Shown: positions 35,270-35,698, counted from the stretch's first letter. The stretch: DNA of 64,000 nt from Candidatus Bathyarchaeota archaeon (GCA_963733055.1 CAVTBR010000003.1:672001-736000); one strand, 5' to 3'. Notes: generated by a model not told the origin, from the sequence alone. Program-made: numbers and translations.

Positions 35270-35506
35270 TTGCAATTACCCGCAAGCCTTGCGATCGGAG
35301 TCCTTTCCGTCGGGGCAGTAGTAGTCCTATTGTCGGGACTAGTTGGGTGGACTAGAAGCCGGCGCGAGAAGTCAGCTGAGCCCATCATTGAGCTTGAGAA
35401 ACTCGTGAATTGTAAATCGTGCGGATCGCTCATGCCTGAGGGTGCCCGCAAATGCGCATTTTGCGGTGCTTGGCAGAGGCAGGAACCGATTCCGGAGAAC
35501 AAATAA
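35270..35506 (+). CDS. Membrane-anchored zinc-ribbon protein
   Basis: N-terminal TM, CKSCG...CAFCG. Confidence 0.7.
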   Translation: MQLPASLAIGVLSVGAVVVLLSGLVGWTRSRREKSAEPIIELEKLVNCKSCGSLMPEGARKCAFCGAWQRQEPIPENK

Positions 35507-35550
35507 AGAGCTAACAGGAAATGCGCGAACGCCGCCGAACGGACACACGA

Positions 35551-35678
35551 GCCGCCGTATGCGAATGTTACGCAGACGATAGCTCAGTGGTGGAGCAGCG
35601 GATCCTTCGCAAGAAGGAGCTGAAGCTGTTAAACGGGCAGAAACCCGTTGGTCGCAGGTTCGAGCCCTGCCGGCGGCG
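35551..35678 (+). tRNA. tRNA-Asn(GTT) with three introns (8/9: 35559-35580; 30/31: 35602-35624; 37/38: 35632-35642)
   Basis: Spliced product folds: acceptor GCCGCCG/CGGCGGC, D stem GCTC/GAGC, anticodon stem GCGGG/CCCGT with loop CTGTTAA, T arm GCAGG-TTCGAGC-CCTGC, discriminator G; each intron junction forms a BHB-type motif. Confidence 0.9.
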
Positions 35679-35698
35679 CTATTGATTTCACTAGCAAG

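Follow-up and report, generated by a model that had tools for sequence, protein, structure and literature searches.

Multi-intron tRNA genes with relaxed splicing motifs are already well known. In the Thermoproteales (Pyrobaculum, Thermofilum and Caldivirga), up to three short introns per tRNA gene are described at canonical and non-canonical sites in section 4 of PMC4090602 and in passages of PMC8450103 and PMC4033280, and a sequence-only reading of the DNA studied here had likewise named this order, with other TACK lineages, for multi-intron tRNAs. These introns are presented in PMC4090602, in the passages that deal with them, as strict or relaxed bulge-helix-bulge structures, with 30/31 among the listed sites; a two-subunit EndA of broad specificity cuts them, and in some of the genes one intron must leave before the motif of the next can form (passages of PMC4090602, PMC8450103 and PMC4033280). 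The 3/4 intron of certain Thermoproteales tRNAs is called 'an extreme case' in a passage of PMC4090602. In the split and permuted tRNA genes of Nanoarchaeum, Caldivirga and Thermofilum, it is pairing by leader or trailer sequence that builds the EndA motif (PMC4090602, section 4; a passage of PMC3218864).

The locus that we describe here resembles the multi-intron genes of the Thermoproteales in its three short introns, its relaxed motifs, the two EndA-family genes of its genome and the predicted order of removal of introns 2 and 3, whereas it differs from those genes, as they are described in the passages above, in belonging to the class Bathyarchaeia, in using the 8/9 site and in having a conserved upstream copy of the acceptor strand. 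As with the 3/4 intron, its first intron lies so near the 5′-end that acceptor bases and leader must join the motif, but the site and the lineage are different. Sequence outside the mature tRNA would pair toward an EndA motif here as it does in split and permuted genes; however, the present gene is contiguous, what it has in addition repeats the 5′ acceptor strand directly and is not the complement of another leader, and the role proposed for this element is to occupy the 3′ acceptor strand, not to form the cut site itself. Many non-canonical introns, notably in the D arm, that are missed by standard software are also a feature of the Asgard tRNAs of a preprint, which concerns another phylum, places a few acceptor-stem and junction insertions under 'other' and leaves the leader unmentioned. 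The upstream copy linked to the 8/9 intron is thus the new part, since multi-intron genes as such are not; no mention of such a copy was found in the literature on archaeal tRNA introns, leaders and bulge-helix-bulge motifs, as far as the passages at hand extend, and the 8/9 site itself is unnamed in the text of section 4 of PMC4090602 and in the corresponding passages of PMC4033280, PMC8450103, PMC3218864 and the Asgard preprint.

The gene occupies positions 35551-35678 of the plus strand of the window, by which we mean the whole 64,000-nt stretch of DNA analysed; the genome that the window comes from is called G000. Neither ARAGORN (0 tRNA genes) nor Rfam (0 tRNA matches at the gathering score) recognised any tRNA in the raw 64-kb window, and in a genome-wide search the unspliced locus scored 25.8 bits with RF00005 against a cut-off of 29 bits. 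After in silico removal of three introns, a 72-mer was obtained that ARAGORN called tRNA-Asn(gtt) with a clean canonical cloverleaf, as the sequence-only reading had anticipated, having an acceptor stem of 7 bp, a D stem of 4 bp, an anticodon stem of 5 bp and a T stem of 5 bp. Exon 1 (35551-35558) supplies tRNA positions 1-8, GCCGCCGT, and is followed by the 22-nt intron of the 8/9 site (35559-35580). Exon 2 (35581-35601) supplies positions 9-30, that is, the D arm and the 5′ side of the anticodon stem, and it is separated by the 23-nt intron of the 30/31 site (35602-35624) from exon 3 (35625-35631; positions 31-37), in which the anticodon GTT stands at 35628-35630. After the 11-nt intron of the canonical 37/38 site (35632-35642), exon 4 (35643-35678) gives positions 38-73 with the 3′ side of the anticodon stem, the variable loop, the T arm and the 3′ acceptor strand CGGCGGC (35671-35677), and it ends in the discriminator G at 35678.

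A 7-bp acceptor stem, a D arm, a 5-bp anticodon stem with a 7-nt loop carrying U33, a T arm with a TTCRA loop, U8 and a discriminator base were taken to define an archaeal tRNA cloverleaf, and all of these were present in the in silico spliced product (ARAGORN; cloverleaf score 14, the highest seen). The identity of tRNA-Asn is set by the anticodon GUU together with the discriminator G73, and both were found, the anticodon at 35628-35630 and the G at 35678. An independent intron solver was also run, which exhaustively tries the excision of as many as four bulge-helix-bulge candidates from the sequence that lies between a T-arm/acceptor anchor and each 5′ strand matching it; a 4-bp central helix was required, with cleavage behind the second base of every 3-nt bulge. 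Over the 128/148-nt region, exactly these three introns came out in first place, at the highest cloverleaf score (14). The four exons were collinear inside 128 nt, which is not the arrangement of a split or permuted gene, and the upstream element repeats the 5′ acceptor strand and not a 3′ half. The tRNA-Asn gene of G000 has no encoded CCA end, and CTA follows directly at 35679-35681 in its place; CCA is encoded in 29 of the 30 parsed relatives, and it stands 3′ of the tRNA-Asn at loci L031-L033 as well. An Ala-like tRNA of G000 (C1:1552220 region) is likewise followed by CTA. The ARAGORN call on the spliced 72-mer, the independent solver, and conservation with compensatory changes in 33 relatives all uphold the earlier proposal of a tRNA-Asn(GTT) with three introns, and we hold with high confidence that 35551-35678 (+) is a functional, apparently the only, tRNA-Asn(GUU) gene of G000, with EndA-type introns at 8/9, 30/31 and 37/38.

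The splicing motifs were compared with the bulge-helix-bulge as defined by a 4-bp central helix, 3-nt bulges on opposite strands at either side of it and cuts after the second base of each bulge, and the flanking helices on the exon side (h) and the intron side (h′) were counted when they had at least 2 pairs each. For the 8/9 intron, the outer helix GAGC/GCTC of 4 bp (35549-35552 with 35582-35585) makes use of two leader bases, the central helix CGCC/GACG has three of four pairs with a mismatch of C35555 and A35576, the bulges are GT^A and AT^A, and the inner helix TGCG/CGCA has 4 bp; every one of these elements lay where the sequence-only reading had drawn it. Since only three of the four central pairs are formed in the window, the relaxed definition alone is satisfied there. 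The 30/31 intron has, as had also been proposed, a clean motif of the strict hBHBh′ type, in which the central helix CAGC/GCTG was paired 4/4, the inner helix had 6 bp and the outer helix 2 bp. The 37/38 intron, earlier described as a relaxed CTGT/GCAG motif, indeed proved to be of the hBH type, with four of four central pairs including one G-U, an inner helix of 0 bp, and an outer helix that has 1 bp before removal of intron 2 and 7 bp after it. By helix geometry all three inserts are thus bulge-helix-bulge (EndA) introns, that of the 8/9 site in relaxed form.

These motifs determine in part the order in which the introns can be removed. Motif 1 (8/9) takes up one future strand of the D stem and acceptor bases 1-6, and motif 2 (30/31) takes up the other D-stem strand and bases 27-28 of the anticodon stem; since the two have no base in common, both can form together and no mutual order is needed. 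Each of them is incompatible with the cloverleaf. Bases 35626-35627 belong to motif 2 as well as to motif 3, and the outer helix of intron 3 is the anticodon stem itself, which becomes available only once intron 2 is gone, so that both the shared bases and the lengthening of this helix from 1 to 7 bp place the removal of intron 3 after that of intron 2. It had been claimed from the sequence that the motifs compete with each other and with the cloverleaf; this was right for introns 2 and 3 and for introns 1 and 2 against the cloverleaf, but not for introns 1 and 2 against each other.

In order to see how far the gene is conserved, 41 related genomes were searched with a 170-nt query around it, and matches were obtained in 33 of them and at one place in G000. 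The exons were near-invariant in all the 33 matching relatives, while the three inserts varied in length and sequence. The introns at 8/9 and 30/31 were kept in 33/33, and that at 37/38 was missing in eight and 15-25 nt long in most of the others. In the 30 distinct sequences of the relatives, 228 of the 270 cells of the central and inner helices of the 8/9 intron were paired, against 52-125 when the 3′ partner was slid by 1-3 bases as a control, and the second inner pair covaried (GC in 12 sequences, AT in 10, GT in 4 and CG in 2). For the 30/31 intron, 246/261 such cells were paired versus 77-137 in the slid controls. The C-A mismatch in the central helix of the 8/9 motif recurred in 24 of the 30 distinct sequences, and the remaining six had C-G at this place, making a perfect CGCC/GGCG; in the outer helix, base -1 paired with T12 in 29 of the 30 and base -2 with C13 in 16. 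Near-invariant exons beside freely changing introns argue against a silent pseudogene.

Whether another gene could supply tRNA-Asn in G000 was also looked into, a check that the sequence-only reading had named. The query matched nowhere else, no intronless form was found by a pattern search of the genome, and no other GTT candidate was found among 35 T-arm anchors. One other anchor, with a YTGTTR word and a discriminator G, was rejected as a class II tRNA and read as Ser. The solver resolves part of the 35 anchors and the tRNA inventory is incomplete, so that 'only copy' here means that none was found. Among 86 other genomes of the same order, the intronless form gave a single match, which ARAGORN did not call a tRNA. 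Sequencing runs with matching sequence had it at small shares in every case (≤0.17), and in a scan of the wider collection with the exon 1-intron-D-arm pattern, most of the matches listed were chance bacterial ones.

The class was then represented by samples of 301 genomes, 87 of them of the own order of G000. With a pattern that does not require the copy, an 8/9 intron in tRNA-Asn was present in 75 of these 87 own-order genomes, and 8/9 introns were found in tRNA-Cys and tRNA-Leu(GAG) of G000 too. The 8/9 site is therefore old and recurrent in this class; the earlier description of it as very unusual stands insofar as section 4 of PMC4090602 leaves it out of the many positions that it names, but not for this lineage, in which it is ancient and recurrent. 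A junction intronless at 8/9 was present in 112 of the 301 genomes, almost all in other orders, and the spliced 8/9 junction of tRNA-Asn, GCCGCCGT-AGCTC, is the exact sequence of these intronless orthologues. Two genomes of another family of the class (G050:C103:2826-2886 and G112:C7:15104-15164) had two GCCGCCG copies with a 16-nt insert that is incompatible with the splicing motif, and both also carry an intronless tRNA-Asn junction; the two-copy locus is perhaps a decayed duplicate of the gene.

An upstream copy of the acceptor strand, tied to 8/9 introns, is new here and was absent from the earlier reading. It starts twenty bases 5′ of the tRNA as an exact repeat, GCCGCCG, of the 5′ acceptor strand (35531-35537, plus strand), is proposed to pair as a decoy with 35671-35677, and was present in 33/33 matching relatives. 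The linker between the two copies (35538-35550) ends in the bases GA, which pair in the outer helix with T12 and C13, and it contains a CAC that is able to pair with GTG in the D loop; across 30 relatives it was variable in sequence and 5-14 nt long, and up to 25 nt in other families. A pattern of copy, linker, exon 1, intron and D arm was matched in 87 of the 301 class genomes and in 0 with the reversed pattern as control; the positive genomes comprised 72 of the own order and 15 of other families, two of the 15 being chance-like. All the 75 own-order tRNA-Asn genes with an 8/9 intron had the copy, 72 exactly and three with one mismatch (GCCGCCC, GCCGCCT and GCCGTCG, at the equivalent place), whereas in none of 30 loci that are intronless at 8/9 and have the same acceptor (26 are tRNA-Asn(gtt) according to ARAGORN) did the 45 nt upstream contain a copy. 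The genomes are kin and not independent, so these counts overstate the independent support, and the joint occurrence of copy and intron is supported in three tRNA families only, across several families of the class.

A TATA-like box, AAATAAAG, is present at 35501-35508 (+). Among the genes of the 33 relatives it was recognised by regular expression in 21, and in 21/21 it ended 22-26 nt before the copy; the distance from the box to tRNA position +1 was 34-45 nt in these 21 intron-bearing genes and 30-46 nt in 29 intronless ones. Archaeal transcription starts about 22-27 nt after the TATA box, and with this usual spacing the transcript is predicted to begin with the copy itself or no more than about 4 nt 5′ of it. 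The box overlaps the stop codon of an ORF at 35270-35506 (+), which thus ends inside it; this ORF of 78 aa is of a small zinc-ribbon type, has two CxxC pairs and is hydrophobic in its N-terminal part, and ribosomal-protein-like and MoeA-like ORFs lie upstream.

The same design was observed in tRNA-Cys(GCA) of G000 (locus L153, G000:C3:162495-162649, minus strand), in which a GCCGGGG copy is followed by a 5-nt linker, by GCCGGGGT and by a 32-nt 8/9 insert; further inserts stand near the anticodon and before the T arm. The copy here is that of the tRNA-Cys acceptor, which is different, and it was exact in 35 of the 36 parsed intron-bearing genes, with GCCGGGA in the deviating one; two more intron-bearing tRNA-Cys genes, outside these 36, were visible only in alignment. 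Of the five orthologues without the 8/9 insert, none had the copy. The spliced 8/9 junction is again the sequence of the intronless orthologue, GCCGGGGT-GGCCG, and the motif is weak, with three of four central pairs and an outer helix of 2 bp. When the four deviating copies of tRNA-Asn and tRNA-Cys were taken together, three differed at the base at the helix end and one kept a G-U pair. A near-identical 35-nt stretch that opens with the Cys-type acceptor word was seen in four genomes of other families (G047:C73:44542-44576, G083:C77:3790-3824, G088:C4:7551-7585 and G157:C53:359-393).

In tRNA-Leu(GAG) of G000 (locus L154, G000:C1:211219-211370, minus strand), a 22-nt 8/9 intron with a good motif was accompanied by an insert in the D arm and another at 35/36. 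Its leader contained a split or partial acceptor copy, namely GCGG, a hairpin and GGG, or GCGGGA in a subgroup, the elements of which can pair with the 3′ strand CCCCCGC. A 7-nt leader stretch, GGCCTGG or GACCTGG, pairs with CCAGGTC of the D loop, the G/A variation standing opposite a T. The single relative whose tRNA-Leu(GAG) is without the 8/9 intron lacks both the leader copy and the stretch that pairs with the D loop.

Secondary structures were predicted with and without the copy. In the minimum-energy fold of 35530-35680 with the copy (-66.3 kcal/mol), the copy paired with the 3′ acceptor strand; the hairpin into which exon 1 folded also comprised the intron and bases 10-13 of the D stem, and it was lengthened by pairing of CAC in the leader to GTG in the D loop. 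When the copy was left out, the normal acceptor stem was formed (-54.4 kcal/mol). Over the 33 genes, the folding model gave a probability of about 0.99 for the copy with the 3′ strand, while that of bases 1-2 with 10-11 was 0.68 with the copy versus 0.20 without it, and that of the true acceptor stem was 0.00 versus 0.68. The exact 4-bp central helix of the 8/9 motif had a probability of about 0 in the model. After in silico splicing, the copy was still paired to the 3′ strand in the nearest-neighbour model (probability about 0.99), and the proposed switch to the true acceptor would thus rest on tertiary structure and RNase P.

Contigs from RNA libraries (X18, X19 and X20; 151-168 nt, from metatranscriptome assemblies of three runs of two studies) represented the unspliced gene of close relatives. 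Projected on the window they covered 35540-35695, with a leader of at least 2-11 nt and a trailer of 11-29 nt, and were precursor-like and untrimmed. No spliced tRNA-Asn and no exon joints were seen in these contigs, which capture mature tRNA poorly; such libraries can hold DNA, and the contigs cannot show absence. Two of the RNA contigs, one from each of two studies, started at about 35540, three bases 3′ of the copy, and no RNA cover upstream of this point was found among the contigs (depth 2-5), whereas a DNA run extended further upstream. The starts at about 35540 are a weak hint of a stable RNA without the copy, or of a later transcription start, and they could equally come from ordinary loss of 5′-ends at a depth of 2-5.

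We consider it probable that pairing of the copy with the 3′ acceptor strand sets the true 5′ strand free for the splicing motif. The transcription start would lie about 22-26 nt beyond the TATA-like box, either at the copy (35531-35537) or immediately 5′ of it, and in the primary transcript the copy would form a pseudo-acceptor stem with 35671-35677. The freed true 5′ strand would then make the central helix with the end of intron 1 and would join the last leader bases in pairing with bases 10-13 of the D stem as the outer helix, so that the 8/9 motif is presented while the 30/31 motif forms simultaneously on the other D-stem strand. Cutting by a two-subunit EndA and ligation by RtcB would follow; the removal of intron 2 would let the anticodon stem form and complete the 37/38 motif, and formation of the D stem and of the true acceptor stem would become possible when introns 1 and 2 have been removed, after which RNase P would trim the 20-nt leader including the copy. 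The copy may also hold the short 5′ exon on the tRNA body, and it would render an acceptor-proximal intron spliceable and force splicing ahead of 5′ maturation. On balance, and with slightly less assurance, we extend this to the Bathyarchaeia, whose 8/9 introns would depend on a cis element, an acceptor copy at the 5′-end of the primary transcript that imposes a pseudo-acceptor fold and blocks RNase P until the intron is out. If true, the element would act as a programmed switch in RNA folding by which the order of tRNA processing is set, and it would explain how introns have colonised sites whose motif borrows acceptor-stem bases. The strict joint occurrence of 8/9 intron and copy points to a simple cis-acting way to splice an awkward intron site and to splicing that is ordered ahead of 5′-end trimming, and it bears on the limits to where archaeal tRNA introns persist in evolution.

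The gene could be real and the copy still have no role in RNA folding, being a leftover of the origin of the intron (the 5′-end having been duplicated locally, for example) or a promoter or initiator element in DNA, with the broad-specificity EndA cutting the relaxed 8/9 motif unaided. That RNA-library contigs of two studies begin just 3′ of the copy would agree with this, as would the folding model, in which the copy is not released after splicing; moreover, the acceptor is invariant within tRNA-Asn, so the pairs between copy and 3′ strand offer no covariation. On the other hand, the 7-nt copy has been kept in several families of the class while the adjoining linker varies freely, it was missing (allowing one mismatch) from 0/75 intron-bearing own-order genomes and present at 0/30 intronless loci, and where it deviates the change is at the helix end or retains a G-U. 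A promoter element would not be expected to match a different acceptor in tRNA-Cys, as the copy does, and for a tandem duplication no consistent similarity between linker and intron was seen by eye across the relatives. We regard a copy without a folding role as unlikely, though it is the alternative that deserves most weight, and prefer the decoy pairing with the 3′ acceptor strand.

Because the two copies do not differ, the sequence by itself does not reveal which of them reaches the mature tRNA, and the upstream GCCGCCG, which stands where a leaderless transcript would begin, might be taken as the true 5′ exon, with the downstream copy inside a longer intron that starts after base 7. This is very improbable: a T (U8) always follows the downstream copy only, the upstream one being followed by A, G or T; inspection revealed no bulge-helix-bulge geometry for a cut after 35537; and it is the 8/9 junction that restores the exact sequence of the intronless orthologues in Asn and Cys. 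An intron made of the stretch between the copies, or of that from the upstream copy to 8/9, was likewise rejected, as no bulge-helix-bulge geometry fitted on inspection. There is hardly more to be said for a decayed or silent pseudogene, or for a tRNA-Trp(cca) with a single intron, to which we give next to no credence. The Rfam score of 25.8 bits lies under the 29-bit cut-off, CTA and not CCA is encoded at the 3′-end, and ARAGORN in its intron search called 35572-35679 as tRNA-Trp(cca) with a 17-nt intron; its intron-mode calls were unreliable across G000, and this one was rejected because its acceptor stem is mismatched (two A-G mismatches), the variable region being mis-shaped as well. Decay or silence would also be at odds with near-invariant exons amid diverging introns and flanks in 33 relatives, with the finding of no other tRNA-Asn, and with the RNA-library contigs that cover the locus of close relatives.

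The splicing machinery of G000 was examined as well. Two separate genes of the EndA family (PF01974) were found in its gene content, with 83.9 and 54.7 bits; they lie in the regions C3:228623-228877 and C1:1338756-1338995 of G000. The nearest PDB chains of the 185-aa EndA-family ORF were 3p1z_B, 2cv8_A, 3ajv_B and 2zyz_B, which we take to be crenarchaeal catalytic EndA subunits, and the 188-aa paralogue was diverged. RtcB and RNase P RNA were both present. The EndA pair, RtcB and RNase P RNA make up the enzyme set expected for relaxed, non-canonical introns, as is stated in PMC4033280 and PMC5829648.

The tRNA-Asn gene is not alone in G000 in its interrupted form. Most tRNA precursors of this genome contained between one and four inserts and measured 90-250 nt, so that a large part of its tRNAs would escape standard annotation, and genomes of this kind would appear to be without tRNA-Asn and many other tRNAs. 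In the 2.88 Mb of G000, which is 96% complete, 13 loci passed the Rfam tRNA cut-off.
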